Positions 1,358-25,200 of a stretch of 32,750 nucleotides of DNA are shown piece after piece. Each line of letters begins with the position of its first letter. Position 1 is the stretch's first letter. A program made the position numbers and the translations under genes. Below the pieces are notes generated by a model that saw nothing but the letters and a program-made list of their open reading frames with translations, made no database searches and had not been told where the DNA came from. The DNA is from an uncultured Clostridia bacterium (lineage in GTDB: Bacteria > Bacillota > Clostridia > TANB77 > CAG-508), in contig CANRLA010000003.1 in assembly GCA_947631315.1 (NCBI GenBank), forward strand, positions 1 to 32,750, given 5' to 3'.

Positions 1358-1924
1358 TTATTCTTCTACGCTAGTATCAGTCTCTTCTATAGGAACTCCT
1401 TCATTGCTTTCAGTGTTTGTATCTTCTTCATTTATAGAATTTTCTTCACTATCTGTAGCTATTGCATTTTCAGAAACTTCATTATTTACTGTAACTTCAT
1501 TTACTACATTTGATGAATTTTGCAATTTTTCAACTTGTTTTACTTCAAGTGTAGTTATTCCATCAAAAATAAGATCTAATACGAATACTAATAAAGAAAC
1601 AATTATAACTACAACAAGAACTACTACAGTATTATTAAATAATTCTTTTTTACTAGGCCAAATTATCTTTTTTAATTCTGCTTTAAAATCTTTAAACCAA
1701 TGTTTCTTATTAGCTTTTTTATCAGCTTTAGCTACTTTGGTTTGTTTATTAGATTCTTTATTTTTCTTATTATCTTTTACCGTATTTTTTGAAGTACTCT
1801 CAACTTTTGATACTTCTGTTTCTTCTTGTATTTCTTCATCTTTTACTTCTTCTAGTTTAGTATCTTTCTTTTCTACTACTTTTTTATTGTTCTTTACTTT
1901 CTTTTTATTGCTCTTTTTAGCCAT
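1358..1924 (-). CDS. secE: Preprotein translocase subunit SecE, with long N- and C-terminal extensions
   Basis: Core FKDFKAELKKIIWPSKKELFNNTVVVLVVVIIVSLLVFVLD; sits between rpmG and nusG; ATG at 1924 with SD AGGAGG. Confidence 0.92.
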   Translation of the reverse strand: MAKKSNKKKVKNNKKVVEKKDTKLEEVKDEEIQEETEVSKVESTSKNTVKDNKKNKESNKQTKVAKADKKANKKHWFKDFKAELKKIIWPSKKELFNNTVVVLVVVIIVSLLVFVLDLIFDGITTLEVKQVEKLQNSSNVVNEVTVNNEVSENAIATDSEENSINEEDTNTESNEGVPIEETDTSVEE

Positions 1925-1948
1925 TTTGATTCCTCCTAAATACAAGAA

Positions 1949-5753: not shown

Positions 5754-6875
5754 ATGAAAACTAAAACAATTTTATTTTTAACTATATTATCTGCAGTTTT
5801 ATTTTTCGTTCCTAGTTTTTGTAATGCTGAAAGTATAACTGCAAATGATGATGCAAGTTTAAGAAGTGCTATAACTGGTGAAGGTACTTCTGTAGTAATT
5901 ACATTAGAAGATGATATTGATTTAGATGCTCCTATAGAGTTTACTGATAAAACTGTAACTATTAATGGTAATGGACATACAATATCTACATCTAAGCAAT
6001 TAGAAGATGCTTCATGGCCAAAGGTTGGAAATGCTACACTTCTTACTGCTGGTTCAGATACTGGAAAATTAATATTAAATAATGTTAATTTAAAAAATGC
6101 TCCAAAATATGGTGCTCAAGCATACAATGGTGGTACTCTTGTATTAAATAATGTTAATGTAACAGGTTGCGGATATGGAGGTATTATAACAAATGCTGGT
6201 ATCATTGAAGTTCAAAATTTAACATTAGGAAAAAATGGAGCAGATGACAATGTTGGTATTGAAATAGCAAAGAGTCAAAGTCTTGGTGCTGATAAAGAGC
6301 CTAAATTAATAATGAATGGTACTCTTAATTCAAGCCAAATGGAAAATGTTGTATATTTAGCAGTAAATGATAATTTAACAACTTTTGATGTTGAAAACAG
6401 TGAAACTACAACTGATAAGATTCTTGTTAGTGGAAATACAGTAGTTGTTACAGACCCACAAAATAATGTAAAATTCGTAAGTAACGAAAACTTCAAAGAA
6501 GGTTTAAAATTTGAAGGTGATGAGTTTGTTCCAAACATTACTGTAAGTGTTCGTATAATGTACAAAACTGTTGATACTCAAATAATGTCTAATTCTACTA
6601 TTTCTATGGATCAATTAAATGCATTAATTAATTTAGAAGAATTAGGTTATGGTGATTATACTCTTGATGGTTTCTATTTAGATGCTGATTTTAAAGAGAG
6701 TTTTAATTTTGAAACTCCTTTAACTGAAGACACTGTTATTTATGCAAAATTAGCTCCAAAAGCTGAAAAAGATGAAACTCCAAAAACTGGTGTTGAAAGT
6801 TATTTAGGATTAGCCTTTGCTATTTTAGGTACAGCAATCTTAAGTATAGTTGTTCTTAAAAACAAAGAATTCTAA
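5754..6875 (+). CDS. Sortase-anchored surface protein (beta-helix-like N-terminal domain, InlB-B/Flg_new-like repeat, TPKTG signal)
   Basis: Signal peptide; ITLEDDIDL...TINGNGHTI pectin-lyase-like start; YTLDGFYLDADFKESFNFETPLTEDTVIYAK repeat; TPKTG followed by TM helix and KNK. Confidence 0.75.
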   Translation: MKTKTILFLTILSAVLFFVPSFCNAESITANDDASLRSAITGEGTSVVITLEDDIDLDAPIEFTDKTVTINGNGHTISTSKQLEDASWPKVGNATLLTAGSDTGKLILNNVNLKNAPKYGAQAYNGGTLVLNNVNVTGCGYGGIITNAGIIEVQNLTLGKNGADDNVGIEIAKSQSLGADKEPKLIMNGTLNSSQMENVVYLAVNDNLTTFDVENSETTTDKILVSGNTVVVTDPQNNVKFVSNENFKEGLKFEGDEFVPNITVSVRIMYKTVDTQIMSNSTISMDQLNALINLEELGYGDYTLDGFYLDADFKESFNFETPLTEDTVIYAKLAPKAEKDETPKTGVESYLGLAFAILGTAILSIVVLKNKEF

Positions 6876-6892
6876 GAAATCATATTAGTTAT

Positions 6893-6913
6893 AGCCTACA
6901 TTAATTGTAGGCT
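6893..6913 (+). terminator. Probable intrinsic terminator
   Basis: AGCCTACA-ttaat-TGTAGGCT hairpin 17 nt after the stop codon. Confidence 0.6.
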
Positions 6914-7093
6914 GAACTATTTTATTAAATGCTAATTTTATTAATTTATCTATTCATCGAATGTATTATATTCTTTAATTAATTAATTTATTTATTATTT
7001 TTTATTCTTTGATTTATTAATGAGATAATTTACTAATTTAATTACTTCTAAGTACATATTTTTGCAAATAGAAAAGGGGATAAAATTTTTATT

Positions 7094-7897
7094 ATGAAAA
7101 ATAATTCAAAAAAATCGTTTCGTAAAATCGTTTATATTGTACTAATTATAATTGCTGTTCTTTCCGTTGTTTACATTATAAAATATTTCTATGATTATTA
7201 CACTTCTAAGAATCAAAGTAATCTACTAAATGAAGTTACAATTTCAGAGCAAACTAATTTTCTAATTGAAAATAATTTGCAAGAGTCAACCACTGAACCT
7301 ATTAAGTCTGAAAGAATTTTAAAATTGGAAGAACTAAAAAAGCAAAATGATGATATTATTGGTTGGGTTGAAATTGAAAATACTGACATTAATTACCCTG
7401 TCTTACAATCCGAAGACAATGATTTTTATATGAATCATAATTATAAAGGTGAGTTTTCTACTGCTGGTGCAATTTTTTTGGACAAAGATTATAACTGGAG
7501 TATTCCTAGTAGCAACCTTCTTATATATGGTCACAATATGAAAAATAGCACAATGTTTCAAAATTTACTAAATTATAATAGTATAGATTATTATTATGAG
7601 CATCCTATTATAAGATTTACCACCTTGCAAGAAGATGCCCAATATGAAATTATTGGTGCATTTTATTCTAAGGTATATTTTAAAACTGATACCAATGTTT
7701 TTAAGTATTATAAATTTATAAATGCTAAAAATGAAGATGAATATAACAGTTACATTCAAAATGTAAAAAAAGCTTCTTTATACGATACAGGAATAAGTGC
7801 TCAATATGGCGAACAATTAATTACTTTATCAACTTGTTCTTATCATACTGCTGATGGAAGGTTTGTTGTAGTTGGCAGAAAGAAAGTAGTTGAATAA
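7094..7897 (+). CDS. srtB: Class B sortase
   Basis: N-terminal TM anchor; IGWVEIENTDINYPVLQ, IYGHNMKNSTMF (His), LITLSTC (Cys), GRFVVVG (Arg). Confidence 0.93.
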   Translation: MKNNSKKSFRKIVYIVLIIIAVLSVVYIIKYFYDYYTSKNQSNLLNEVTISEQTNFLIENNLQESTTEPIKSERILKLEELKKQNDDIIGWVEIENTDINYPVLQSEDNDFYMNHNYKGEFSTAGAIFLDKDYNWSIPSSNLLIYGHNMKNSTMFQNLLNYNSIDYYYEHPIIRFTTLQEDAQYEIIGAFYSKVYFKTDTNVFKYYKFINAKNEDEYNSYIQNVKKASLYDTGISAQYGEQLITLSTCSYHTADGRFVVVGRKKVVE

Positions 7898-7961
7898 TAA
7901 TTTAATTAATTTATTTTAATTAAATATTATTAAAAAGCAATTTATTTTGTAAAACATTAAA

Positions 7962-7989
7962 GCTCCTCCCTGATTATTCAAGGAGGAGC
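7962..7989. terminator. Terminator hairpin between the convergent srtB and cohesin genes
   Basis: GCTCCTCCCTGA-ttat-TCAAGGAGGAGC; U-rich tail on the - strand. Confidence 0.75.
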
Positions 7990-8089
7990 CTCATTGGTAA
8001 AAATTTAAAGTTTACACAAAGAATCTTATATTTTTTTATATTATTTTTATCTTAGCTTACTTTTATTATTTTTCTAAAATTCATTGTTT

Positions 8090-8998
8090 TTAATCTCTTT
8101 TTACTGTTTCTTTTTTATTTAGCAACTTAATTCTAACTAATAAGGTTATTGAAACTAATGCAAATATACTAATTAATATAAATGTTAAAATATCTATATC
8201 ACCTGTTTGTGGTAAAATGCCTGGTCTAACATCATCTTTTTTAGCATCATTTATATTAGTACTACTTCCGTTTTGATTTGCATTATTGCTACTTCCATTG
8301 TTTCCACCATTCTGACTTTCATCATTTTGGCTTCCACCATTTTGACCTTCGGCATTTTCGCCTTCGCCATTTTGACTTTCGCCATTTTGGTTTCCATCGT
8401 TTTGGCTTTCGCCGTTTTGATTTTCGTCATTTTGACTTCCACCATTTCCACCATTTCCATCATTTTCATCATGATTTCCGCTGTTTCCATCGTCATCGCT
8501 TCCTACTTTTTCTTGTATTGTTACTTTAACAGAAGCATCACTAGTTGCTATATCTGAAACTGCATTTGATCCTGAAAAATTAGTTAATTTAATTGTTGTT
8601 TCTCCTAATGCTGCATTTTCTTTTACTTTTAATTTAATTTTTCCTATATCTTGTGCTGTATTTACCACTTGACAGTCTTTAGTAGTACCTATAATTATTT
8701 TATTTTGATAAAATGGTTCATCCCATTTTTCAGTTCCTTCTGACACATCATATTCAAATATTGAAGAATCAAATTCTATATTAGATTTATAAGCTCCAAT
8801 ACCTTTTTCACCACTCTCTACAGATATATCGCTTAATGAAATAGTTAAAGTAAGTTCATCTCCTATGTGAACCTGAGAATGATTTGCACTTAAGCTTACT
8901 TTGTAGCTATCGTTTGCTGCTTTTACATTTGTACTAAGTGCTAGCATTGTAATTAATACTATAGCAATTACATTTATTCTCCTTATAATATTTTTCAT
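8090..8998 (-). CDS. Cell-wall-anchored single-cohesin protein (anchoring mini-scaffoldin)
   Basis: Signal peptide; about 135-aa cohesin-like beta-sandwich (VHIGDELTLTISL, GIGAYKSNIEFDSSIFEY, IGKIKLKVKENAALGETTIKLTN); G/N/Q/S/E linker; LPQTG followed by TM helix and basic tail. Confidence 0.8.
   Translation of the reverse strand: MKNIIRRINVIAIVLITMLALSTNVKAANDSYKVSLSANHSQVHIGDELTLTISLSDISVESGEKGIGAYKSNIEFDSSIFEYDVSEGTEKWDEPFYQNKIIIGTTKDCQVVNTAQDIGKIKLKVKENAALGETTIKLTNFSGSNAVSDIATSDASVKVTIQEKVGSDDDGNSGNHDENDGNGGNGGSQNDENQNGESQNDGNQNGESQNGEGENAEGQNGGSQNDESQNGGNNGSSNNANQNGSSTNINDAKKDDVRPGILPQTGDIDILTFILISIFALVSITLLVRIKLLNKKETVKRD
8300..8470 (-). repeat. Degenerate 15-bp tandem repeat encoding a (G/D)xxQN linker
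   Basis: GGSQN DENQN GESQN DGNQN GESQN GEGEN AEGQN GGSQN DESQN; + strand units such as CCATTTTGACTTTCG. Confidence 0.8.
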
Positions 8999-9032
8999 TT
9001 TTCTCTCCTATCCATTTGATTAATTTTATAAT

Positions 9033-12000
9033 TTAGTTATTTTTTCCTTGTGTTATTACTAATCTTTTTAATAATAATAAGTCTGTTACTGTAATTTCGC
9101 CATCTTTGTTTATGTCTGCTGCTATAAATTGATCATCTTTTAAAATCCAATCTTCATTTGTTCCTGCTACTAAATGTCTTGTCACTTGTAATATATCTGT
9201 TTCTGAAATCTCTCCATCTTTATTGGTATCTCCTAAGATATTTTCATCAGTTTCTCCTGGAGTTTTAATCCAATCAACATTAGCTACAGCTGTCCCTTGA
9301 TTTCCTGCTTCATCTTCAAATTCAAATGTGAAAGTTCCATTCTTTGTGAATGTATAGTTTCTAGCCATATTGTTATTTGTAATAATTATGTTTTCACTTT
9401 CATTTGCTAAGCTAACTGTTACTGGCTCTTCTGTTTCTTCTTGAATACTATATACAACTTCAGCTGTTGGTGCTGTTTTGTCTATCCAGCTAACCTTTGC
9501 TGTATGCTCTTTTATGTCTGAATCGTCAGCGTCATTAGCATCTTTATATCTGAATGTAAATTCATTATTTTCATTAAATGTATATGCTTTAGAATCGTGA
9601 TTTACTATTGCAACTTTCATGCTCTCTACTTCTTCTTCTGCGTTTGCATTTTGGTTAATCATGTATGGGTTAATTGTTGCAACTACATTTTTGTTTGTTG
9701 TTCTTGTTATATCATAAGATATATCACTTGCTATTATATTTCCATCTTCAAGATAATCTGCTTTTATAGATTTGTAAGCTATGTTGCTTGCTTTATCAAG
9801 AAGTTTAAATTGATAATTTCCACTTTCTTCAAATGTATATTCTAATGGGTTTGCTTTTACTTGTTTTAATCCTCTCATTGCTTCTTCTGCATCATCAGGT
9901 ATATCTTGAGCACTTATGCTAACTCCATTTTTGTCAAGATATTCTTCGCCTTTTACTTCACCGTTTTCCATTGTTGTTACATAATATCCAACATCTTCTG
10001 CTTTTCCTGTTGTATTTGTATATATTATTCTTGTGATTATTCCTTCTTCATTTAATTCTTCTACTTTATAAATATTTCCTGAAGCATTTAAGTAAGAAAT
10101 TTTATTAACTTTTCCATCATTTACTTCAACATAGTTTATCTTTTTATCTTCATTATCTAATAAGTAAACATCTTCACTTATGCTATCTAGTAAGATACGT
10201 AATTTTTTATTTCCATCTAATTTATAATTAACATCTGCTGTTGGTCCGTTTGTGTCTATCCAGTCTACCTTAGCATAAGCTGTGCCTTTATTTCCGTTCT
10301 TGTCTTCAAATTCAAATGTGAAGTCTGTATTTTCTTTAAATATATAAGTATCGCTTCCGTTATTATTTGTTATTGTAATTTCTGTACTTGGATTAACAAG
10401 TTTTGCTATTACATAGTCTTTCGTTAATTCTCTAGTACTATATTCTATTTCTGCTGTTGGTTTTGTTCTGTCAATTTTTGTTGTATCTTCATATAGATTT
10501 ATCATTGCTATTGATGCGAACATATCGTATGTTTCTAATCTTAATCTGACATATTTTGCTTTAACACTATCATCAAAATCTATTGTTCTTAATGCAATAT
10601 TCTTTTCAAAGTCTTCACTTTTCTTAACTTCTGTCCATTCTTTTCCGTCCATGCTTACTAATATTGTTGCATTTTTTATGTAATCTGGGTCATTATCTTT
10701 ATATTTTGTTTGTATAAATTCTACTGCTGATATATATTTTGGATAGTTTAATTCAACTGTAATATATGTGTCTACATTATTTTTTATAATATCTTCAGCA
10801 AAGTTTGTGTGCCATAATGTATGTATGTTTCCATCTATTGCATTTGGTGCATAATATGGTCTCTTACTATCAAGTGATTGAGTTGAATATCCTGTTCTTT
10901 CTTCATCTTCAGTCTTATTGTCCGGATAATCTTTAATTGATAAGTTTGAAACACTTATATATTTTCTATTCTCAGGTTGATTATCCTCAGTAAATTCATA
11001 TACTTCTGATGGTGCACTTGCAAGTTTATTTCCTGTAGGTGTTTGTCTTACTTGTAGTGTTTTATTTCCAGTTAAATCAGGTGAAGATGTTTTAAATGAT
11101 TTCCAGTTATCACCTTCTTTATAACGCCATTGTGTTTTTTCTATATCTATACCAATTAGACGATTTTCTAGGTCGTTAGCATATAAATTAGTTGGTAAAG
11201 TTTGCTCTTCTATCTCTATTTTGTATATATTTGCTTCTGAATAATCAGTTCCAACTATATGAACATATATGTCATTTTCTGCTGTAATACTGTTAACTTC
11301 GTCTTTGCTAAGTTTTAATTTATGTTCTGCATCTGCATCAAATGATACTTCTTTCCATTTACTCTTATCATCTATAGTGTCTTTTCCACTTAAGTTGTAG
11401 TCCCAACGAACACCGGTACCATCAAAACGACTTGATAATACTATTTTTTCTGCATCTACTCCGTCAAATGAGAAGCTTGCAAGTGATGTGTCTGTTTGAC
11501 CTAATAAGAAGTTTGCTACTGTTCTTGTTATTCCTGGTTGATATACTTTATATGTTGCAGGATCTTTCGCTGTGTCGTCACTTAAGTTCTTTCCTTGTGT
11601 TAATAAGTCTGTTTCTAAAAGTGTAAATCTAAATGAATAATCTACTGTTTTGATTTTTCCTTCAATTTGGTCTAATAAGTTTTTCATTGGTAGTGGATAT
11701 GGCATTAATGCATTTCCTAATTCTACTGCTAATTCATAGTAGTCTTTGTCCGCTTTCGCTAGACTTCCTTCGTATGCATTATATGTATTTATTAATCCCC
11801 ACCAAGCATCTATATTAATTTTTTGTACTTTTAATGCTTCTCTATAGATTTCTTCTTGTTTCTTTAAGTCACCTTTATATATATCTGCTGTCATCATAAT
11901 TTTTTCAGCTTTTTCATAATTTGCATAATCATTTATAGCTTCTTGTGATAACATCATATATGTTGCAGCCCAGCCACTAACATAAGAATCGTTACCCCAT

Positions 12001-13775
12001 CCTAAAGGCATTCTTGTTTGCATCTTTTCACTAGCTCCTGATTGAGCCCATCCTGATACGTCATTGTCCATTGACCAGTAACCTTTTCCATTTGCATCTT
12101 TTCTATAGTAAATGATTGCTGCGTGTCCTGGTTGACTTATAACTGATGCTGGAGTACCATGTGCTGCACGGATATGGCAACCTAATTTTGATATACCACC
12201 ACAAACTGCTCCTGTTCCATATGAGTTTCTCATACTCATCCATGCTTTATATACTTTGTCCACTACTGTTCCATCTTCTTTTACATCTCCTGTATATGAT
12301 ACATGGTATTCGCTGAATATTCCTTCAAATAATTTATCCCATTCAGCCATTTTCTTTTCAGGGTCATGGAAAATTGGATTATCAAAGTTTGGCCATACAT
12401 AAGCAATATATGTATGAGGTTGTAAATATTTTTCTGGATTTTCGTCTTTATGTTCATCTATTCTTTTTTGTGTATAAGCATTGAACCACTCTAATTCTTC
12501 ATCATCTGTAATGTTATTCATTACATAACGCATTTCTTCAACTTTTAATGCTTCAAACCATTGTCCTTGGTCTTGAGTTTCACTTACTTTGAATTTTCCT
12601 CCGTCATATAATTTCTTATATATTGCATAACGATTTACAGAATCTGATCTATTTGCAGGGTGGTCAATTTGAGCCCAATATCCAACTTTTGTTGCATGAG
12701 TTAATGAAAGTGAAATTGCCATCTTTCTATAAACATCACCTTTTGTTAAGCTTGGTTCCCATGGGTTGTTTGTTAGCTCTGTTTTATCAAAATCTTCATG
12801 ATAAGCATTGTAAAGTCTTGTAAGTTCTTTTATTGAATTATAGTAACTTCCGCCATCAGGTTCTCCACCTAATACATACAAGCGAAGAGTTTTTAAATCA
12901 TTCATTAACCATCTAACAGTTTCTTTATATTGTTCATCTTGTTTAACTATTGCTTGTAAAAGGTCATAACCTACTGCATTTACAAATGTTCTTTGTAATA
13001 AAGTTTGTTCATAATCATTTATTTGTTGTTCTAAAGTTTTGTCTTTTAATTCATTATCATATTGTTCTACTGTTTTAATAAAATCAGCATCTTCCATTGT
13101 AGGTTCTTCATATCCATCTTTATATAATCTCGGATTTGCATAAACAGCATGGTCTGAAGAATTGCTTCCAATACAATCACATTCTAATTTTAAATATTTT
13201 GCACCTGTAACATCTATTGTTAATTTTTCCGCATTTTTATCTCCTTTTAATGCGTTTGGATTTTCTGATGTTTTTAGTGTCCAGTTTTGTTTATCATCAG
13301 ATGTGTATATTTTGAATTTAACACCATTTCCTTGATTTCCACGACTTTCATCAATACCAACATATGTACTGAATTTATCAAATCCATAATCACCAATATC
13401 ATATACTAGTGTTGAATTTGCGTGCGCAGAAATTCCTTTTAAAAAGTATGTTTTTTCTCCATCTATTAATAAAGTGATTAGTCCATGGTTATATTTTGTT
13501 TCTAAGTTACTGTCTAATGTAATACTTCCCCATCCTACTTTTGAATCTTCTTTAATATATTCAATGTCAGATAAATATTTGCTCATCTCATTAGAAACTG
13601 TTGCTGCTAGATATTTACCTTCCTTTTCACTTAATGTTGTTGTCTCAGATTTTTGACTGATATTTAAGTATTGAGCACAGACTTTAATTGAAAAAAATAA
13701 AATAAAAAATAAAATAGAACTAGCAACTAGTTTGTTCAAAATTTTTTCTGTTTTAAATTTTAATTTGTTTTTCAC
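9033..13775 (-). CDS. Large secreted multidomain protein: NPCBM, uncharacterised catalytic-like core, F5/8 type C (CBM32), Ig-like repeats, C-terminal dockerin
   Basis: GTG start with SD AAAGGGGG; signal peptide; NPCBM (KYLSDI..GWG..KGISAHANS..FSTYVGID..DHAVYANPRL); discoidin (NAIDGNIHTLWHT..VSMDGKEW..AKYVRL); PTAEIEYS..FTFEFED..GN repeats; dockerin GDTNKDGEISETD..ADINKDGEITVTD. Confidence 0.85.
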   Translation of the reverse strand: MKNKLKFKTEKILNKLVASSILFFILFFSIKVCAQYLNISQKSETTTLSEKEGKYLAATVSNEMSKYLSDIEYIKEDSKVGWGSITLDSNLETKYNHGLITLLIDGEKTYFLKGISAHANSTLVYDIGDYGFDKFSTYVGIDESRGNQGNGVKFKIYTSDDKQNWTLKTSENPNALKGDKNAEKLTIDVTGAKYLKLECDCIGSNSSDHAVYANPRLYKDGYEEPTMEDADFIKTVEQYDNELKDKTLEQQINDYEQTLLQRTFVNAVGYDLLQAIVKQDEQYKETVRWLMNDLKTLRLYVLGGEPDGGSYYNSIKELTRLYNAYHEDFDKTELTNNPWEPSLTKGDVYRKMAISLSLTHATKVGYWAQIDHPANRSDSVNRYAIYKKLYDGGKFKVSETQDQGQWFEALKVEEMRYVMNNITDDEELEWFNAYTQKRIDEHKDENPEKYLQPHTYIAYVWPNFDNPIFHDPEKKMAEWDKLFEGIFSEYHVSYTGDVKEDGTVVDKVYKAWMSMRNSYGTGAVCGGISKLGCHIRAAHGTPASVISQPGHAAIIYYRKDANGKGYWSMDNDVSGWAQSGASEKMQTRMPLGWGNDSYVSGWAATYMMLSQEAINDYANYEKAEKIMMTADIYKGDLKKQEEIYREALKVQKINIDAWWGLINTYNAYEGSLAKADKDYYELAVELGNALMPYPLPMKNLLDQIEGKIKTVDYSFRFTLLETDLLTQGKNLSDDTAKDPATYKVYQPGITRTVANFLLGQTDTSLASFSFDGVDAEKIVLSSRFDGTGVRWDYNLSGKDTIDDKSKWKEVSFDADAEHKLKLSKDEVNSITAENDIYVHIVGTDYSEANIYKIEIEEQTLPTNLYANDLENRLIGIDIEKTQWRYKEGDNWKSFKTSSPDLTGNKTLQVRQTPTGNKLASAPSEVYEFTEDNQPENRKYISVSNLSIKDYPDNKTEDEERTGYSTQSLDSKRPYYAPNAIDGNIHTLWHTNFAEDIIKNNVDTYITVELNYPKYISAVEFIQTKYKDNDPDYIKNATILVSMDGKEWTEVKKSEDFEKNIALRTIDFDDSVKAKYVRLRLETYDMFASIAMINLYEDTTKIDRTKPTAEIEYSTRELTKDYVIAKLVNPSTEITITNNNGSDTYIFKENTDFTFEFEDKNGNKGTAYAKVDWIDTNGPTADVNYKLDGNKKLRILLDSISEDVYLLDNEDKKINYVEVNDGKVNKISYLNASGNIYKVEELNEEGIITRIIYTNTTGKAEDVGYYVTTMENGEVKGEEYLDKNGVSISAQDIPDDAEEAMRGLKQVKANPLEYTFEESGNYQFKLLDKASNIAYKSIKADYLEDGNIIASDISYDITRTTNKNVVATINPYMINQNANAEEEVESMKVAIVNHDSKAYTFNENNEFTFRYKDANDADDSDIKEHTAKVSWIDKTAPTAEVVYSIQEETEEPVTVSLANESENIIITNNNMARNYTFTKNGTFTFEFEDEAGNQGTAVANVDWIKTPGETDENILGDTNKDGEISETDILQVTRHLVAGTNEDWILKDDQFIAADINKDGEITVTDLLLLKRLVITQGKNN

Positions 13776-13812: not shown

Positions 13813-13841
13813 ATTATAACATATTTTAGTATTTGTGTAAA
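13813..13841 (-). promoter_or_regulatory. Sigma-A promoter of the dockerin-cohesin operon
   Basis: TTTACA-17 nt-TATAAT with an extended TG motif; lies just outside the IS target duplication. Confidence 0.7.
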
Positions 13842-13868: not shown

Positions 13869-15308
13869 AGCAAATTTTTATTTGAATTTCCGTTTTTTAT
13901 TAAAAACCTGATATAAGTGTGGTGATATAATATTAATATGTTTTCTTATGATGAAAGGAAAAATTATGAAAAAATGGAAACATATTAATTTTGAACAAAG
14001 GAAAACTATTGTATCAGGTATTACTCATAATAAAAAATTATGTGAAATTGCAACTATCTTGAATCTAGACCCAACTTCTATTTCTAAAGAAGTTAAAAGA
14101 AATCGTACTTTATCTAAATATGGTAGGACTTCTCAAGAATGCCCTTTATTATCTAGATGGCCTTACGTTTGTACTAATTGTAATAAAAAATATACATCTT
14201 GTCATTTTAACCAATATAGATATGATTCTAAGGTTGCTCAAAATAATGCAGATTGCAATCTAATTAACTCTAGAAAAGGTATTGATATTTCTTCTGAAGA
14301 CTTTAAAGAACTAGATCTTATTATTAAAAATGGTGTTGATAACAATAAATCAATTTACCAAATTAAAATTGAAAATTCTGATAAAGTAACAAAATCATTA
14401 ACTACTTTATACAGATATATTGATAAAGGTTATTTAACAACTAAGAAAATTGATTTACCTTTTGCTGTAACTTACAAAAAAAGAAAATATAAAAGTAAGT
14501 ACAACTACTCTGACAATATAATAGACAGAAGTAATCATACTTACCTTGATTATCTTGCATACATACATAATCACCCAAATTCGTATGTATGGCAATTAGA
14601 CTTTCTTGGTTCAATTAAGAAAGACTCTAAGTCTATTTTAACACTTTCTTTACCTAATTTGCAATTCTCTATCATTGAAATAATAAATCTTCCCAATTCT
14701 TCTAAAGTCGTTTCATTCTTTGACTACATTGAAAATAAAATTGGAACAGATGCTTTCTTAGATTTATTCCCTGTTATTCTTACTGATAGAGATCCTTGTT
14801 TTAATGACTATGATGGCATTTGTTTTTCAAAAAATACTGGCGAAGAAAGATGCAAGTTATTTTATTGCGACCCTTATGTGTCAAATCAAAAGCCAAATGT
14901 TGAGAACATTAATAAACAATTAAGAAAATTTTTTCCTAAGGGAAAATCTGTTGATAATTATACATCTAAAGACATAAAAGAAAAGAATTTTATACTTTTA
15001 GATACTCCTCTTAAATCTTTAGATTCATTTACACCAAAACAAGCTTTTATAAAAGTATTTAGTGAAGAATTATTTAATAACTTATTAAAATAATTCAAAT
15101 TAATTATAATCATAAGAAAACATATAAACTGAAATAAGTCTGAAAAAACGGAAATAAAGCCGTTTATTTGTCATGCTTATTTTTCTATATTTTAATTAAA
15201 ATTTAATATTTTTTTCAGCTTTATTTCCGTTTTATTACTTAAAAACTGTAATAAATCTGAATAATGCAAAAACCTTTTATTTTCCGGAAATTACTCTGAA
15301 AATTTGCG
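13869..15308 (+). mobile_element. IS30-family insertion sequence, 1440 bp, complete
   Basis: Left end AGCAAATTTTTATTTGAATTTCCG versus reverse-complemented right end CGCAAATTTTCAGAGTAATTTCCG (18/24 identical); 15-bp flanking direct repeats; one transposase ORF. Confidence 0.9.
13966..15093 (+). CDS. IS30-family DDE transposase
   Basis: HTH (EIATILNLDPTSISKEVKRN), Cys-rich segment CPLLSRWPYVCTNC..C, TTLYRYID, DDE motifs WQLD / LTDRD / QKPNVENINKQLRKFFPKG. ATG at 13966 follows SD AAAGGA. Confidence 0.92.
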   Translation: MKKWKHINFEQRKTIVSGITHNKKLCEIATILNLDPTSISKEVKRNRTLSKYGRTSQECPLLSRWPYVCTNCNKKYTSCHFNQYRYDSKVAQNNADCNLINSRKGIDISSEDFKELDLIIKNGVDNNKSIYQIKIENSDKVTKSLTTLYRYIDKGYLTTKKIDLPFAVTYKKRKYKSKYNYSDNIIDRSNHTYLDYLAYIHNHPNSYVWQLDFLGSIKKDSKSILTLSLPNLQFSIIEIINLPNSSKVVSFFDYIENKIGTDAFLDLFPVILTDRDPCFNDYDGICFSKNTGEERCKLFYCDPYVSNQKPNVENINKQLRKFFPKGKSVDNYTSKDIKEKNFILLDTPLKSLDSFTPKQAFIKVFSEELFNNLLK

Positions 15309-17075
15309 ATCTTGTTGTTGTTTTTCTACTTCTAAATATGGCAATAGCTCATTAAATATTTTTCCTCCAACCGGTGCTGCTACTCCACCTCCTTGATGAC
15401 CTCCTTCTCCTGTTGGATTATATAGTGTAACTAAAAGCACTACTTGAGGATTTTCTATTGGTGCAACTCCGATAAAAGATGTTACATATTTTCCAGTATT
15501 GACCCCATCTTCTGATGTTCCAGTTTTTCCTCCAATGTTATATCCTTCAACTTTTGCATTTTTTCCAGTTCCTTCTGCTACAACAGTTTGCATCATGCTT
15601 AATACATCTTTAGAAGTTTTCTCAGATATAACTCTTTCCCCTGTTTCTACAGGTATTTCTGTTACTTTAGGATTTCCATTTTCATCTTTTTCGCTACTAC
15701 TTATAATACTTTTTACTAAATGTGGTTTTATATAAACTCCTTTGTTAGCAATTGTGGAAAGCATTGTTACCATTTGAATTGGAGTTATTTCAAATCTTTG
15801 TCCAAACGCTATTGTTCCAAGTTCTACTGGTCCAACTTTTTCCTCTTTTAAGAATATAGAACCTGCTTCTCCTGGTATATCTATTCCAGTTGTATGAAAA
15901 AATCCAAACTTTCGTAAATAGCTATAATATGTTTTTACTCCCAATTTTTGTCCTAATCCAATAAATACTGGATTACAAGAATTCATTAATGCGTCTCTTA
16001 AACTTTCGCTTCCATGTGGTCTATAATATCTCCAGCATTTCATCTTTACTCCGGCAACATCAATATAACCCGTACAACAAAATTCTCCTGCTTTATCAGT
16101 AGTTGTTATGCCTTCTTCTAAAGCACTTGATGCAGTTACTAATTTAAAAGTTGATCCTGGCTCATAAGTATCTGATATTGCTTTATTTCTCCAAAGTGCC
16201 TGCATTTGCTTTGATTGATCTTCTTTTGATAAACTTTCATCTACTGCAAATGGGTCGTTTAGGTTATAATCAGGATATCCAGCCATAGCTAATATATCCC
16301 CATTTTGTGGATTCATTATTACAATGTTTCCACCATCTGTACACTTATTGTCTATACATGCTTCTTTAAGATGCTTTTCTGCTATTCCTTGAATTGTTGC
16401 ATCTATTGTTAAAACCAAATCATCACCATTTACTGGGTCTATATATTCTTCTGACGTATCATCAATTTGACTACCAGCTGCATCTGTTATTCTACTTATA
16501 TAACCTTTTGTTCCTTTTAAATTTTCTTCATATTTTGCTTCAATTCCTGAAAGACCCTGATTATCACTACCGCAAAATCCTATTACTTGAGAAGCTAGAT
16601 TATTGTATGGATAATATCTTTTTGTATCCTCATCTATGTTAACTCCCTGTGAAATACCATTTTCATCCAGCCATTCTCTTAGCATATTTGCCTTTTCATT
16701 ATCAACTTTACTAGCTATTTTCTCTATTGATGAACGCTTACTTACCTTTTTTAGTGTTTTTTCATAATCTAATTCAAATAGCTCTGAGAGCTTTCTTGCT
16801 ACTTTTTCTTTGTCCTGTATTACTGTTGGATTTACAGTTATTGTTTGAACTGTACTACTTACTGCTAATACTTTTTCTCCTGTTGCGTCATATATAGTTC
16901 CTCTTTTGGGATTTACACTTCTATCAGATGTTTGTTGTAAATATGCCCTCCTTTTAAGTTCACTTCCTTCTACAAATTGCAAATATCCTATTCTAAATAA
17001 TAATAGACACAATATTATTATTGTTAGTAACATCGAATTTCTCATCCTTTTTTTTAGTGACTTTTTTCCTATCAT
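15291..17075 (-). CDS. spoVD: Class B penicillin-binding protein (SpoVD/FtsI-like), no PASTA domains
   Basis: RGTIYD, RYYP, GLSGIE, GDDLVLTID pedestal motifs; SxxK (GSTFK), SxN (SCN), KTG; follows ftsL. The last 5 residues derive from the IS. spoVD versus ftsI cannot be resolved from sequence alone. Confidence 0.85.
   Translation of the reverse strand: MIGKKSLKKRMRNSMLLTIIILCLLLFRIGYLQFVEGSELKRRAYLQQTSDRSVNPKRGTIYDATGEKVLAVSSTVQTITVNPTVIQDKEKVARKLSELFELDYEKTLKKVSKRSSIEKIASKVDNEKANMLREWLDENGISQGVNIDEDTKRYYPYNNLASQVIGFCGSDNQGLSGIEAKYEENLKGTKGYISRITDAAGSQIDDTSEEYIDPVNGDDLVLTIDATIQGIAEKHLKEACIDNKCTDGGNIVIMNPQNGDILAMAGYPDYNLNDPFAVDESLSKEDQSKQMQALWRNKAISDTYEPGSTFKLVTASSALEEGITTTDKAGEFCCTGYIDVAGVKMKCWRYYRPHGSESLRDALMNSCNPVFIGLGQKLGVKTYYSYLRKFGFFHTTGIDIPGEAGSIFLKEEKVGPVELGTIAFGQRFEITPIQMVTMLSTIANKGVYIKPHLVKSIISSSEKDENGNPKVTEIPVETGERVISEKTSKDVLSMMQTVVAEGTGKNAKVEGYNIGGKTGTSEDGVNTGKYVTSFIGVAPIENPQVVLLVTLYNPTGEGGHQGGGVAAPVGGKIFNELLPYLEVEKQQQDRKFSE
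15309..15323 (+). repeat. Target-site duplication, right copy (15 bp)
   Basis: ATCTTGTTGTTGTTT abutting the right TIR; encodes KQQQD of the PBP on the - strand. Confidence 0.9.
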
Positions 17076-17287
17076 ACCTACACATTTAAAATAAACGAAT
17101 ATAAATTCGTTGTATTTTTCTCCTTATAAATATTTAGATTTTAATAAAATCTATAAACTCTTTATAAAGATTATTATTTTGTTTTTAATTTTATGATTTT
17201 TGTTTAATTTATAATTTTAATAAATTTTCTCAATTTCTTTTTTAAGCTAAATTAATTTGCTATTGGTTTAAAAAAATTTTAACAATT

Positions 17288-17338
17288 AAAATAGACACTT
17301 TTTAGATGTAAACTTTGCATCTAAAAGCGTCTATTTTT
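17288..17338. terminator. Terminator-like hairpin after ftsL
   Basis: AAAATAGACACTTTTTAGATG...CATCTAAAAGCGTCTATTTTT with A/T tracts on both sides. Confidence 0.7.
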
Positions 17339-17388
17339 CATTATTTGATTTCTATTATATTATTTTTTCTGTTTACTTTTTGGTGTTT

Positions 17389-17895
17389 TTATTGCTCTCC
17401 TTTAAGTGTTTTTAATAATTTTTGCCACCAGCTATCTTCTTCATTATTTTCTGTGTCTGTCGATGATTCAACATAGTCTTTCTTTTGAAGTGTAATATAA
17501 ACTTTTTGATTATTGTCTAATTTCTGCATTCCTAATTTTTCTTTTGCTGCTTGTTCAATATTATTAATGTTCATTCCTTGTTCTATGCTTACTTTAAGTT
17601 GTGCATTTTGTTTTTGAAGTTCGGCTAAACTTGCTTTCAAACTTTCTTTTTGTGAAAATCTTGAGTTTATTAGAGCATATCTATAACTTATGGTTAATAA
17701 CAACACGAATACTATTCCTATTTCTATAATATGCTTTACATTTTTTCTTTTTTCTATTACTTGTGCTTTTCTTATTTTTTTTCTAATATCATCTTTATTA
17801 TGTACAGTATTTTCTTTTTTCTTAGTTCTTTTTCGCACTGGTTCTATTGGTTCTTCTTTTCTAGGACTAGTTTCATACTCATAGTAATTAATCAT
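17389..17895 (-). CDS. ftsL: Cell division protein FtsL-like
   Basis: Basic N-terminus, one TM helix, leucine-zipper coiled coil, IEQAAKEKLGM motif; located between rsmH and the PBP gene. Confidence 0.75.
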   Translation of the reverse strand: MINYYEYETSPRKEEPIEPVRKRTKKKENTVHNKDDIRKKIRKAQVIEKRKNVKHIIEIGIVFVLLLTISYRYALINSRFSQKESLKASLAELQKQNAQLKVSIEQGMNINNIEQAAKEKLGMQKLDNNQKVYITLQKKDYVESSTDTENNEEDSWWQKLLKTLKGEQ

Positions 17896-17981
17896 AAGTT
17901 ATCACCTCTTTTCTCTTTAGGTTTAGTTTTGTTGCTTGCTCTCTATTTTCTATTGTTTTTTACTTTATGTTTTCCATTATT

Positions 17982-18914
17982 TTAGTTTTTTTCATTTTTT
18001 TCAAATATTCTTAATTTTGCACTCTTTGCTCTTGGATTTTCTTGTAATTCTTCTTTGCTTGCTTCTATCGGCTTTTTATTAACTATATTTCCATAAGATT
18101 TATAACCACATATGCAATATGGCAAATCCTTTGGGCAAGTGCATTTCCCTTGAGCATCATTATATGCATTTTTTACTGCTCTATCTTCTAATGAGTGGAA
18201 TGTTATTATACATAATCTACCATTTTGATTTAATACATCAATTGAATTTCTAACTGTATCATACAATGGCTTTATTTCATTATTTACTTCTATTCTTATA
18301 GCTTGAAATGTTCTTTTTGCTGGATGTCCATCTTTTGAAAATGGTTTAGATTTTTCAATAATATCTGTAAGCATTTTTGTTGTAGTTATCTTTTCTTTTT
18401 TTCTATATTCACAAATATTTTTAGCAATTGATTTCGAAAATCTTTCTTCTCCATATTCATAAATTATTTTAGCTAGTTCTTCTTCTGAATAATTATTTAC
18501 GACATCCATTGCTGTAAATTTTTGGCTTTGATCCATTCTCATATCTAAAATATTATCACTATTATAACTAAAGCCTCTTTCTCTTTCATCTAATTGATAT
18601 GATGATACTCCTAGGTCCAATAATATTCCATCTACTTTATCTATATTAAGTTCTTTTAAAATATTTTTTATGTCATCATGATTTCCATGTACTAATTTAT
18701 AGTTTTTAAAAAATTTTAATTTTTCCTCTGCTACATTTAAAGCATCTATATCTCTATCTATGCCTATTAGTAAACCTTTATTTGATAACTTTTCTATTAT
18801 TTTTATGCTATGTCCTGCTCCACCTATTGTACCGTCTACATATATTCCATCAGGCTTTATATTAAGACCTTCTATACATTCATCTAATAAAACAGGAATA
18901 TGTTTAAATTCCAA
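17982..18914 (-). CDS. rsmH: 16S rRNA m4C1402 methyltransferase RsmH (MraW)
   Basis: HIPVLLDE, VDGTIGGAGHS, DLGVSSYQLD, TFQAIRIEVN, ITFHSLEDR, NPRAKSAKLR motifs; TTG start with SD GAGGTG. Confidence 0.97.
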   Translation of the reverse strand: MEFKHIPVLLDECIEGLNIKPDGIYVDGTIGGAGHSIKIIEKLSNKGLLIGIDRDIDALNVAEEKLKFFKNYKLVHGNHDDIKNILKELNIDKVDGILLDLGVSSYQLDERERGFSYNSDNILDMRMDQSQKFTAMDVVNNYSEEELAKIIYEYGEERFSKSIAKNICEYRKKEKITTTKMLTDIIEKSKPFSKDGHPAKRTFQAIRIEVNNEIKPLYDTVRNSIDVLNQNGRLCIITFHSLEDRAVKNAYNDAQGKCTCPKDLPYCICGYKSYGNIVNKKPIEASKEELQENPRAKSAKLRIFEKNEKN

Positions 18915-18939
18915 AATAACACCTCTTTATAATTCCATT

Positions 18940-18967
18940 AGTTGGCATATATAAATATATGCCAACT
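18940..18967. other. Perfect 13-bp inverted repeat just upstream of the rsmH SD
   Basis: AGTTGGCATATAT-aa-ATATATGCCAACT. Confidence 0.8.
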
Positions 18968-18974
18968 TTACTTT

Positions 18975-19336
18975 TATCTTTTGTTTAATTCTTTTGTATA
19001 TTTAAAAGTTCTTTAGTGAAATAGACATCTTTTGAATTTTACTATCTCATTTGTTCGAATCTTTATAATCATTGCTTATATTTTGAAATTTTTTCTTTAG
19101 TTTAGTTTTTCTTTTTTTCTTCTGTTAGGCGTTTTATTATGTGATTTTCATTTGTAAAATTTTTCTTTTGTTCAAAACTTATAATTTTCTTCTTTTGTAT
19201 TTTAAGTTATTCACTTTTTATCTTTTGTAAAAATTTTTAATCTTATCTTTTGTGTTTTTATGTTTTTTCTTATGTAAAGTTTAAAATTTTATCTTTTGTT
19301 AGCTTTATCTTTAGTATAATTTATATAAACTTTTGC
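18975..19336 (-). repeat. Array of about 16 same-orientation degenerate motifs (+ strand tCTTTTGT; - strand ACAAAAGa)
   Basis: CTTTTGT or one-mismatch variants starting at 18978, 18991, 19011, 19029, 19048, 19095, 19119, 19149, 19165, 19192, 19222, 19247, 19269, 19293, 19309 and 19330. Confidence 0.6.
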
Positions 19337-19339
19337 AAG

Positions 19340-19780
19340 TTATATACCAAGCATTCCGAGATTTGCCATATTTTCAGCGATTTGATCTGCTGAAAGATTT
19401 TCTTCACTATTGTATTTCTTCCATTTGTCTTTATCCCAGATTTCAATTCGTGTTCCAACCCCTGTAATCATTACTTCCTTATCTAATTCTGCATATTCTC
19501 TTAAGTTCGATGATATAAGGAATCTACCTTGTTTATCAATCTCACATTCAATTGCTCCTGATAAGAAAAATCTAACAAAATCTCTAGCGTTTTTATTGGT
19601 TAGTGGTAATGTCTTTAATTTTTCTTCAAAGTTGTCCCATTCTTTTTGTGAAAATCCAAACAAACATCCATCTAGTCCTTTTGTTATTATGAATTTATCA
19701 CCAACGTCTTCTCTTAACTTAGCTGGCATTATTAATCTGCCCTTTGCATCTAGTGAATGTTCGTATTCGCCAATTAACAA
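19340..19780 (-). CDS. mraZ: Division/cell wall cluster transcriptional repressor MraZ
   Basis: [36 protein letters not shown] motifs. TTG at 19780 preferred because GTG at 19792 overlaps the SD. Confidence 0.96.
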
Positions 19781-19797
19781 CTTCTTGTTCACCTCCT

Positions 19798-22235: not shown

Positions 22236-25200
22236 TTAAACTACATATTTTTTTATAATTAATGCTCCCGCTCCAAATATTAACACTGCTCCTGCAATTA
22301 TTGCTATATATGTTTGTGCTATACCTGTTACTACTGTTAGTATTACTGGTGCATCATCCATATCGTCTTCTCCGTCTTTTTTATTATTTGGCGTTGAATC
22401 TATATCAGGTGAATCTGATGGATTACTATCTTTACTTATTTCTGCTACATTTATTTTTAGATTTAAGTTTTCATCTCCATTTATCCATGTTAGCAATACT
22501 TCTACCGTTGCTGATTCTCCTGGTTGTAATAGTGTGTCTTTCAATTGGTCTGTTACTATCTTTCCATTTTCTTCTCTCCACTTTGGATTATCTGCTTGAT
22601 TAAATTTTAATCCTTCCGGTATATAGTCTGATATCTCTGTTGCGTATCCTTCTATCTCTCCTTCGTTTGTTATTCTTATCTGATATCTAAATTTTACTAT
22701 TGTATTTTCTATTCTGTCTTTATTTAGTTCTACTTTTACTACTGGCTCCGGGTCTTGCTCTGCATAATGGTCTGTATCCATCTCTTTTTGTATACCATCT
22801 TCTATTAATATTGCTTGACTTACCCATTTTCTTAATGCTAAATCAAAATATTTTACATATAGATGTTCTACATCTTGGTCGTCTTCCCCTTCATTCCATT
22901 CATTTGGTGTTGAGTCTGTATCGTCTACTTCTTCTCCTTCTTCGTCTGTATCTTTACTTATCTGTGCTTTATTCGTTATTGTTCTATCTGATGTGTTTGG
23001 TTCTGTTACTCTAAATGCTATCTTTACATCTTTATAATCAGGTGTGTCCATTGTCGTTGGGTCAAATCCTTTTAATAGATTCTCTCCTTTTACTTTTTCA
23101 TTTTCTTTTGATAAATAATCGGTTGCTATCGTTTCTGCTTTTTTTATTTCTGTTGTTATATTTCCGTCTTTATCATACATTATCCATTTATATTCTTTAT
23201 TTATTTCATGGTCTTGTATAAATTCTAACCCTGCTGGTATATCATCTTTTATCTCTGCTGCATAGCCTGCTTGGGTTCCTTCATTATATACTCTTATTGT
23301 GTATGTTACTACATCGTTATTTGCTACTCTTACTGGATCTTTTGGATGTGTATATTCCATATTTGTTATTTCTTTTCCATCAACTATTGTTCCATATTTT
23401 GATGTATCCACTTGTGGTACTCTTGTTGTTATTTCCTCGTCATTTACTCCTGTTATAAATTTTCTTAATGCTAAATCAAATTTTTCTAATATGATTTTTT
23501 CAAAGTCATCATCGTCTTCTTGTCCTTCATAATGATAATCTTTGTCTGTTAAATCTTCTTTATTATCGTCATTTCCTTTATAATTTGGAAGTTCTGAATC
23601 ATTTGGAAGTTTTACTTTCTCATCATTATCTCTATCCGGTATATTATATTCATTATTGCTTGCTGTTATTTCTGCTATATTTGTGATTTTCTTAGAAACT
23701 TCTGTTGTATTTTTTACTTTGCATCTAACTTGAATATCCTTATAATCTAAGGTTCCTTCTCCATTAAATCCTTTTAATATATTTTCTTCACTTTGAGCTT
23801 TTGATAAATATGTTGTCTTTATTGTTCTTCCTGTTTCATCACTACTATCTAAAGTCCATAAATATTTTTTGTTCATTTCATCATTTGGTAAGAACTCTAG
23901 TTCAGGTGGTAAGTGATCTACTATCTCATCTGCATATCCATCAACTTGACCTTCATTATATATTCTTAATGTATATGTTACTATATCACCTACTTTTACT
24001 TTTATTGGTTCTTTTGAATGCTTATAATCTGCTGTTTTTTCTCCATTTAATAATGGTGAAACATCTACAGTTGGTGCCCTATCATACTCTCCATTTGTTT
24101 TTAATTCAGTTTCATTTACAGCTGTTATAAATTTTCTTAATGCTAAGTCAAAATTTTTAATATATACTTTTTCAAAGTCATCATCATCTTCTTCGCCTTC
24201 ATAATAATGATTACTATCACTTAAATCGTCTGGATTTGTATTTTTTCCTTTATAGTTTTCCATATTATCTTTATTTACATTTGGGCTGTTTGATGGCTGT
24301 GAATCTATATCACTTCCATTTGTATTGTCTTCTGTATCATAATCATTACTAATATATGCTACATTTGTTAAAATACCATTATTACCCATCATAGCTTCAT
24401 AATTAACTTTACAATCGATTTCTATTGTTTCATAATCTAAATCCCCATCAAATGTTTTTAAATCTTTTGCTTGGTCTTGGATTTCAAATATCACTCTATT
24501 TGTATTTTCATTATATTGTATTTTATAGGTATTTTTTTCTTGACCATCAGAACCAGTTGATGTAACAGTTCCACTACTTAATAACACTAATCCTCTTGGT
24601 AGTTGGTCTATTATTTGACTAGCATATCCTGTTTTTTCACCTTCATTGTAAATCGTTATGTTGTAGGTTACTTTATCATTATTTTTTACCAAAATAGGAT
24701 CTTTCTTATGATTGTAATCTGCTGTTGTATCTTGTTTACTTTCTAATCCTGTGTCATTTATATTTGGATTTCTAGATGGAATATTTAAGTCTTTTAATAA
24801 CACATCATTTATTTTTGTTATATATTTTCTTAATGCTAAATCAAATTTTTTATAAGTATTTTTTATAACGAATCCGCTTCTAGAATTTCCTGTAATTTGT
24901 GCAGTATATCCTCGAGGTAAATCTTTTTCTATAACTGTATAAAATATCTCTTGCCCATCTTTATCTGTATCAAGATCTGTAAATGTATATTGCCAGTTAT
25001 TTCCCTCATTTAAAGTTGCTTCGTTTTTAACTTCACCATTAGCTAGTAATTCCACTACTACTGATGATGGTCTCGTACTTTGAGCATTATCTGAATCATC
25101 CCAAACCTTTTTAACTGATACTTGCGTTTTATCTGTTTTATGATAATTTGTTATAGTAAATCCGTCTGTTTGGTTTCCTGATACTGTTTTAGTATATTCA

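Follow-up and report, generated by a model that had tools for sequence, protein, structure and literature searches.

A cohesin-dockerin gene pair with a probable wall-display role and a conserved central module without described counterpart in uncultured Clostridia

How is a large secreted protein with sugar-binding modules held at the surface of a bacterium, and what does it do once it is there? This question is raised by two adjacent genes in a stretch of 32,750 nucleotides (nt) from an uncultured Clostridia bacterium (contig CANRLA010000003.1), hereafter the window, by which the whole stretch is meant. The first gene encodes a secreted modular protein of 1580 amino acids (aa) which ends in a dockerin, and the second encodes a 302-aa anchor protein with a single cohesin and an LPQTG motif. 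The source genome is known from a draft assembly of 125 contigs, 1.35 Mb in total and 76% complete. An earlier note on this DNA had read the two genes as a minimal system of one enzyme and one anchor, placed beside its own sortase. In the analysis reported here, the two genes were found linked in most related loci, wall display of the large protein was judged probable, and the central module of this protein was found to represent a conserved family which probably carries a catalytic activity.

Domain organization and conservation of the gene pair

All coordinates are positions in the window, and the open reading frames (ORFs) were confirmed at these positions. The features of the pair and of its flanks are as follows.

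9033-13775, (-): large secreted modular protein, 1580 aa (ORF, Pfam, homologues)
13125-13580, (-): NPCBM/NEW2 (CBM51-like) sugar-binding domain, residues 66-217 of the large protein (Pfam)
10896-13103, (-): central module, residues 225-960 (homologues, model)
11901-12458, (-): putative catalytic core within the central module, residues 440-625 (conservation, model)
10503-10862, (-): F5/8 type C (CBM32-like) domain, residues 972-1091 (Pfam)
9246-10478, (-): three repeats ending in a W-I-D/K motif, residues about 1100-1510 (Ig-like by sequence pattern)
9060-9236, (-): type I dockerin with two calcium-binding loops, residues 1514-1572 (Pfam, sequence)
8090-8998, (-): anchor protein, 302 aa (ORF, Pfam, sequence reading)
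8525-8881, (-): cohesin, residues 40-158 of the anchor protein (Pfam PF00963)
8201-8215, (-): LPQTG of the anchor protein (sequence)
13813-13841, (-): promoter-like site upstream of the large gene, TTTACA, 17 nt, TG-TATAAT (consensus match only)
7958-7993, (-): terminator-like hairpin with a 16-pair stem, 3' of the anchor gene and between two convergent units

The large protein begins with a basic-hydrophobic N-terminus and is composed of a signal peptide, the NPCBM domain, an unnamed central module, the F5/8 type C domain, three Ig-like repeats and the dockerin. In the hidden Markov model (HMM) search each named domain scored above its curated threshold, and the ORFs, their 34-bp spacing and the domains which had been described for the locus were all recovered. 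In Pfam, the NPCBM match had an E-value of 1.3e-27 (96.9 bits against a cut-off of 23.9), the F5_F8_type_C match one of 7e-18 (above threshold) and the Dockerin_1 match (PF00404) one of 1.8e-10 (41.3 bits against 22.9). Type I dockerins are defined by two repeated segments, each of the form D-x-N-x-D-G-x-I-x-x-x-D. Two EF-hand-like loops, DTNKDGEISETD and DINKDGEITVTD, were found in the tail of the large protein, which is a member of this type. The W-I-D/K motifs of the three repeats end at residues 1172, 1430 and 1502, and the three-repeat region showed no significant Pfam match.

The nearest solved sequences to the NPCBM domain (7js4, 2ygl, 2vmg and 2vng) are CBM51-type carbohydrate-binding modules (CBMs) of glycan-degrading enzymes, while the F5/8 type C domain showed profile matches to CBM32 modules of NagH, NagJ and NanJ. 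The solved sequences closest to the two flanking modules are CBM51 and CBM32 modules of Clostridium perfringens and pneumococcal enzymes which act on host glycans. Because the nearest solved modules belong to such enzymes, it is reasonable to call the large protein host-glycan-targeted, as far as sequence similarity can indicate.

The anchor protein shows the order signal peptide, single cohesin, linker, LPQTG, hydrophobic stretch and basic tail, which is a ScaE-type architecture as read from the sequence, the signal peptide being recognized by eye. Its cohesin matched PF00963 with an E-value of 4.2e-8 and 33.9 bits (cut-off 24.1) over profile positions 7-138 of 139. The linker is about 95 residues long and rich in Asn, Gly, Gln and Glu. 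The anchor family has 133 homologues. Nearly all of the 120 listed possess PF00963, and the [LI]PxTG signal is conserved across the anchor alignment (A3).

The large gene has a GTG start with a GGGGG ribosome-binding site 7 nt before it, and it is separated by 34 nt from the anchor gene, which is preceded by an AGGAG-type ribosome-binding site. Upstream of the large gene, the promoter-like site at 13841-13813 (-) was the top match of the region, with 11 of 12 consensus positions and the TG element. Since the total of promoter-like sites in the region (46) is that expected from shuffled sequences (46.4), only the placement of this site speaks for a promoter. In the region scan no terminator-like site was found between the two genes on their own (-) strand; the one other such site lies on the + strand inside the cohesin gene, at 8903-8920. 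A promoter and a terminator common to the two genes had been predicted, and the prediction agrees with a well-placed promoter-like site in front of them, a strong hairpin behind them and none between them on their strand. The layout is operon-like, and a two-gene operon is its best explanation from the sequence.

Linkage of the two genes was surveyed in one genome per species, whose contigs were searched with an alignment of 27 anchors (the query and 26 of the 120 listed homologues). The survey yielded 62 loci, all from metagenome-assembled genomes (MAGs) titled uncultured Clostridia or Clostridium, except one from Oscillospiraceae. A same-strand upstream ORF with a dockerin end was present in 57 of the 62, its stop lying 11-168 nt before the cohesin gene, and this ORF also bears the central module in 53/62 loci. 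The four dockerin ORFs without the module comprise two cut by contig ends, one piece of a split gene and one unrelated protein of 956 residues. The five loci without a partner are three with distant cohesins (29-38% identity), one cohesin gene standing alone and one fusion. Linkage in related genomes, on which the earlier note had staked its proposal, therefore holds in 57/62 loci.

In the fusion (locus L114, 3510-8663) a single protein of 1717 aa is encoded, in which the enzyme body runs into the mature cohesin, the linker and LPQTG; the dockerin and the signal peptide of the anchor are both absent from it. In locus L118 (2-4981) a small adaptor, itself bearing both a cohesin and a dockerin, is encoded between enzyme and anchor. 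Among genomes of the same genus, two (G004 and G001) keep the pair, while the homologues of two others end directly in LPNTG (G020) and LPQTG (G006). Taken together, these forms suggest that the cohesin-dockerin pair and direct sortase anchoring can replace each other, as a function in wall display predicts. The fusion, the directly LPxTG-anchored homologues and the linkage of the pair therefore make wall display well supported on comparative grounds.

We propose that the two-gene operon encodes a surface-display device. Its first product would be the secreted 1580-aa protein, in which two host-glycan-type modules flank a module of about 740 residues and a dockerin stands at the end. The second product would be exported and joined covalently to peptidoglycan by a sortase through LPQTG. 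Its single N-terminal cohesin, carried away from the wall on the flexible Asn/Gly/Gln-rich linker, would capture the dockerin in a calcium-dependent manner, and the large protein would thereby sit on the cell surface. There the two binding modules may steer the central module to glycoproteins which bear galactose or N-acetylgalactosamine, such as mucins.

Two observations weigh against this proposal. In two genomes of the same genus (G014 and G009) the homologues carry dockerin-type tails with no adjacent cohesin, the cohesins of both genomes being located elsewhere, and the assignment of the cohesin fold in the anchor protein comes from a single line of evidence, the HMM match of 33.9 bits. 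Tethering to the wall of a protein with host-glycan-type modules by a cohesin-dockerin pair, as had been suggested for this locus, nevertheless appears to be the most likely reading of the linkage, the fusion and the LPxTG-ended homologues, and we hold the wall-display function of the pair to be probable with good confidence.

The central module and its possible catalytic centre

Residues 225-960 of the large protein matched no Pfam model at E<=10 and no NCBIfam model. Homologues of the module are abundant: 558 proteins were found at E<=1e-3 in a 90%-clustered collection, and the 186-residue core alone retrieved 338 representatives of 50%-identity clusters at the same threshold. Their source names are only 'hypothetical', 'discoidin domain-containing' and 'NPCBM/NEW2 domain-containing' proteins, and all come from MAGs. 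When the architecture of 42 of the 150 listed representatives was scanned with Pfam, NPCBM was found before the module in 27 and F5/8 type C after it in 34, and in none of the 42 did a Pfam family fall on the module. The device at the C-terminus differs among these 42 proteins (dockerin in 6, SLH in 1, and also CBM5/12, Big_3, LRR and sialate esterase) with the core remaining constant. This varying attachment device independently supports anchoring as the purpose of the C-terminal part.

No Pfam match to a glycoside hydrolase was present in either protein of the pair, and the central module gave none at E<=10 and no NCBIfam match. The earlier statement that no glycoside hydrolase can be recognized in the locus is borne out to this extent, but it passes over the conserved central module, which with its Cys-His-Asn/Asp signature probably supplies the catalysis.

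An AlphaFold model of residues 225-960, built from a 30-sequence alignment, had a mean confidence (pLDDT) of 83.7. It consists of an all-alpha part, a short Cys-His core, a helical part resembling tetratricopeptide repeats (TPR-like) and two beta-sandwiches, in this order. In the modelled core, Cys525 stands at the start of a helix which three strands follow; His551 is at the beginning of the second strand and Asp570 to Asp572 are at the end of the third. The key residues of the core are encoded at the following positions.

12201-12203, (-): Cys525
12123-12125, (-): His551
12060-12065, (-): Asn571-Asp572

Conservation was assessed by aligning the query with 133 diverse representatives of clusters at 50% identity. 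Cys525 is kept in 131/133 and His551 in 133/133, Asn571 is found in 124/134, and position 572 is Asp or Asn in 124/134. Other near-invariant positions are Gln548, Pro549 and a number of Trp and Tyr residues (Y459, W512, W567, W576, W593 and Y606). The distance from Cys to His is 26 residues and that from His to Asn/Asp 20-21 residues. A conserved Cys-His-Asp/Asn set, with the Cys N-terminal in a helix and the His and Asp on neighbouring strands of the model, corresponds to what is looked for in a transglutaminase-like centre. Enzymes of the transglutaminase-like family (PF01841), peptide:N-glycanase included, share this plan, with a Cys at a helix start, His and Asp/Asn on the next strands and a similar spacing. 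In contrast to them, the central module has all-alpha and TPR-like surroundings which have no counterpart there, and neither the family HMM nor the family fold found a match in it.

Sequence comparison gave signals in the same direction. In the Atlas the second-nearest cluster was Transglut_core, with a score of 0.90, which serves as a lead only. When the core was aligned by hhalign with 29 PF01841 cores from genomes of the same order, P was 0.0043 for the shallow alignment of the core and dropped to 0.0014 for the diverse alignment, and Cys525 fell on the catalytic Cys of the family in both. The 22 controls behaved differently: 24 NlpC/P60 cores gave a P of 0.33, the reversed query one of 0.78, and none of 20 column shuffles went below 0.33. 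HMM cross-searches placed transglutaminase segments at all of the first 15 ranks among 53 control segments. NlpC/P60 was also considered as a papain-like home of the core and was rejected (hhalign P 0.33, best HMM E-value 1.3).

Several results count against a catalytic centre of this kind. The hhalign probability was 17%, and the alignment fails to put His551 on the His of the family. PF01841 had no match on the large protein at E<=10 though it matched two other genes of the genome. The 186-residue core refolded alone reached a pLDDT of only 48 and was unusable. With the 736-residue model, Foldseek against PDB found nothing at E<=0.001 and only rows of tandem type resembling fibronectin type III (FnIII-like), and Foldseek and VIA-align between them gave only FnIII-like and TPR-like rows and no transglutaminase-like fold. 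The conserved Cys and His could instead be structural or metal-binding. A profile of the alignment A1, searched against PDB sequences, matched only binding modules, the dockerin and designed TPR proteins. By these searches, the central module is a conserved family without a described counterpart. The transglutaminase-like evidence is weak, but it is consistent and specific relative to the controls. It is probable from the conservation pattern that the module carries a catalytic activity. That this activity is that of a cysteine hydrolase (a peptidase or amidase) with a transglutaminase-like centre of Cys525, His551 and Asn571/Asp572 is a narrower claim, for which we see the chances as evenly balanced.

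In the alternative which survives best, the large protein would be an adhesin or lectin without catalytic activity, binding host mucus or another cell, with the Cys and His in a structural role. CttA, which is bound to ScaE in Ruminococcus flavefaciens, offers a model of such binding-only cargo. The lack of any detected catalytic family in the large protein and of any structural match of the central module to an enzyme would suit this explanation, as would the large share of the module taken up by TPR-like helices and beta-sandwiches, and the near-invariant Trp and Tyr residues would also be suited to a binding surface. Such an adhesin would, however, leave unaccounted a Cys and a His which are near-invariant across representatives of only 50% identity, and which stand in the model in the arrangement of helix start and strands typical of papain- and transglutaminase-like enzymes. 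The specificity of the transglutaminase-like signal against the controls, and the placing of binding modules around a large conserved core, which is a typical enzyme architecture, also speak for an enzyme. We regard the adhesin as rather doubtful. If the module is a cysteine hydrolase guided by glycans, one possibility is a cysteine-type protease of mucins or glycoproteins, and another is a secreted bacterial glycoamidase of the peptide:N-glycanase fold.

Sortase and other cohesin-dockerin pairs of the genome

Two genes on the opposite strand converge on the pair.

7094-7897, (+): class B sortase, 267 aa, convergent on the pair (TIGR03064)
5754-6875, (+): secreted 373-aa protein with a pectate-lyase-like adhesive domain, TPKTG and sorting signal (PF20585)

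The sortase matched TIGR03064 with 175.4 bits (NCBIfam cut-off 153.75) and belongs to class B. Given its position, it had been taken as the pair's own sortase; on this reading, the four genes would make up one anchoring unit in which it is dedicated to the cohesin anchor. The convergent arrangement does recur, as sortase B adjoins the pair in 17/62 related loci and may thereby have a second role in anchoring the cohesin protein, and it is seen also beside the directly LPNTG-anchored homologue of G020. The gene order inside these loci points in another direction. In the window the sortase lies 218 nt downstream of the TPKTG protein in the same orientation, and in 17/17 sortase-bearing loci a protein of 217-398 residues with an invariant TPKTG directly precedes the sortase on the same strand, whereas the cohesin anchors carry variable signals of the [LI]P[QKE]TG type. 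The remaining 45/62 loci lack this sortase in the flanks that were retrieved. Sortase-domain matches in the genome number 10, of which at least three are class B and several generic, and one of the generic sortases adjoins another LPQTG protein. In Clostridioides difficile, the characterized class B sortase acts on (S/P)PxTG peptides but leaves LPETG uncut (PMC4155245). A sortase dedicated to the cohesin anchor is thus unlikely, and the earlier description was not upheld on this point. Most likely the class B sortase of the window serves the TPKTG protein upstream of it, and we propose that another sortase of the genome would handle LPQTG.

The TPKTG protein and the class B sortase form a conserved two-gene cassette in their own right (window 5754-7897 (+); 17 loci between L064 and L114). 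Its conservation suggests a dedicated pair of sortase and substrate with Thr at the first motif position. Another sortase cassette of the genome is duplicated. On contig C40, two sortase gene copies with identical scores are found about 5.5 kb apart (833-1171 and 6303-6641), and downstream of each is encoded a small secreted protein whose C-terminus consists of FDQTG and a hydrophobic tail.

Pfam recognizes three dockerins and two cohesins in the genome; counted more widely, dockerin-type tails number at least four and cohesin-type modules at least three. Further pairs of a dockerin protein and an anchor are located on contig C9 (locus L006).

C9, 2140-4305 and 4302-5864: dockerin protein and its anchor
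C9, 6061-8181 and 8193-9845: dockerin protein and its anchor
C9, 12818-16735 and 16783-17829: dockerin protein and its anchor

In two of these pairs the first protein is a SagB-like glucosaminidase with SH3 and dockerin domains, followed in each case by a membrane-anchored protein with cadherin-like domains. The third consists of a transglutaminase-related protein of 1305 aa, which has a cohesin-like stretch in its interior and ends in a dockerin-like tail, and of a cohesin protein anchored in the membrane, whose gene comes next. The idea that the window holds the sole cohesin-dockerin pair of the genome was rejected, as two more Pfam dockerin proteins and one dockerin-like protein are each followed by an anchor gene of their own. 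The picture of a minimal system of one enzyme and one anchor has to be narrowed in the same way, with at least three further pairs in an incomplete genome: it is true for each pair and not for the organism. A multi-cohesin scaffoldin, by which a cellulosome or mucinolysome is recognized, was not found in the 76%-complete assembly, which possesses single-cohesin proteins only.

Identity is 27-33% among the four dockerin-type tails and 22-24% among the cohesins, and such low values fit private pairs which do not cross. A dockerin which lacks specific binding to its neighbour cohesin, and joins instead a promiscuous network (a small multi-enzyme complex) or some other partner, could be argued from the number of tails and cohesins in the genome and from the adaptor of L118, but is the least probable of the alternatives in view of these identities, the anchor gene adjacent to each dockerin gene, the 57/62 linkage and a fusion in L114 which joins exactly these two partners.

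Genomic setting, known systems and meaning

In related loci (L063-L120) the pair stands after a gene for a SpoVD-like penicillin-binding protein (PBP) and before murE-mraY-ftsW-murG, and a large serine recombinase is present in 16/62 loci. The neighbours in the window are mraZ, mraW, ftsL and an intact SpoVD-like PBP of 594 residues. Between the PBP gene and the pair lies a gene for an IS30-like transposase, whose match of 63.9 bits is below the cut-off of 80.

13948-15093, (+), and 15291-19792, (-): context region with the IS30-like transposase and mraZ-mraW-ftsL-PBP

The pair thus looks like part of an island within a division and cell-wall gene cluster. A search with the 186-residue core matched 7 of 24 other genomes of the same genus, none of 16 genomes from four further families of the order and, at E<=1e-5, none of 400 additional genomes sampled across the phylum. 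Among the genomes searched, the central-module family is a patchy, lineage-restricted island gene.

Elsewhere in the window, two giant paralogous surface proteins of 1571 and 1259 aa with DUF11 repeats are encoded at 22236-26951 (-) and 27230-31009 (-). Cna_B domains are present in one and a thioester (TED) domain in the other. The two proteins are almost the same at the N-terminus and in the membrane-anchor tail at the C-terminus, and neither has an LPxTG motif. At 1358-1945 (-) a SecE-domain ORF of 195 aa is found, in which the domain covers only residues 81-129. As the ORF is unusually long for SecE, its true start is probably further downstream.

The anchoring of the pair can be compared with several known systems. 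ScaE of R. flavefaciens possesses a signal peptide, a single cohesin, a linker and an LPxTG anchor, and its neighbour gene encodes the dockerin-bearing carbohydrate-binding protein CttA. Through ScaB, ScaE anchors a large plant-fibre cellulosome. The window pair resembles it in the architecture of the anchor and in the neighbouring gene for a dockerin-bearing, carbohydrate-binding cargo, but the window system has no multi-cohesin scaffoldin, and its cargo combines host-glycan-type modules with a central module of no described family. In C. perfringens, secreted glycosidases (NagH, NagJ and others) with CBM32-type modules form non-cellulosomal cohesin-dockerin complexes, in which the cohesins are borne by other enzymes. 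The non-cellulosomal setting is shared, and the solved sequences nearest to the window's binding modules come from enzymes of this species, whereas the window cohesin is placed on a dedicated wall anchor and not on another enzyme.

The mucinolysome of Limousia, a gut Firmicute, is a cohesin-dockerin system directed at the glycans of host mucin, with five scaffoldins, some of them multi-cohesin, and many dockerin-bearing glycoside hydrolases; in one scaffoldin, cSca5, the cohesin is N-terminal and an LPxTG anchor lies at the C-terminus (PMC12997984). The non-cellulosomal complexes of C. perfringens are mentioned there too (PMC12997984). An LPxTG-anchored cohesin and a host-glycan-directed cargo are common to the two systems, while the dockerin proteins of the window genome differ in having private single-cohesin anchors and the cargo in having no glycoside hydrolase domain. 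ClcC and ClcD of Cellulosilyticum lentocellum are encoded by adjacent cohesin and dockerin protein genes and form a heterodimer whose binding was demonstrated; the system is cellulolytic, its abstract mentions no wall anchor, and the genome annotation has a single cohesin and a single dockerin (PMC13487519). The adjacent two-gene pair is the likeness, and the presence of several pairs in the window genome is the difference.

The display system thus belongs to a known kind, that of ScaE-type anchoring and the mucinolysome, and the activity of the central module is the more interesting question. Since cohesin-dockerin display beyond plant-fibre degradation has already been documented (mucinolysome, amylosome and C. 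perfringens), the locus adds a clean and strongly conserved two-gene example, not a new principle. Within one protein family, the fused, directly LPxTG-anchored and adaptor forms provide natural controls for the function of the pair. Tentatively, and with less confidence than for the catalytic centre itself, we suggest that the module founds a family of extracellular glycan-guided cysteine hydrolases with a transglutaminase-like Cys-His-Asn/Asp centre, displayed on the wall by private cohesin-dockerin pairs in small-genome gut Clostridia and encoded on an island in the division and cell-wall cluster. The homologues, with their 338 cluster representatives, point to a widespread unannotated family whose probable targets are host glycoproteins in animal guts, and which is directly testable with recombinant protein.

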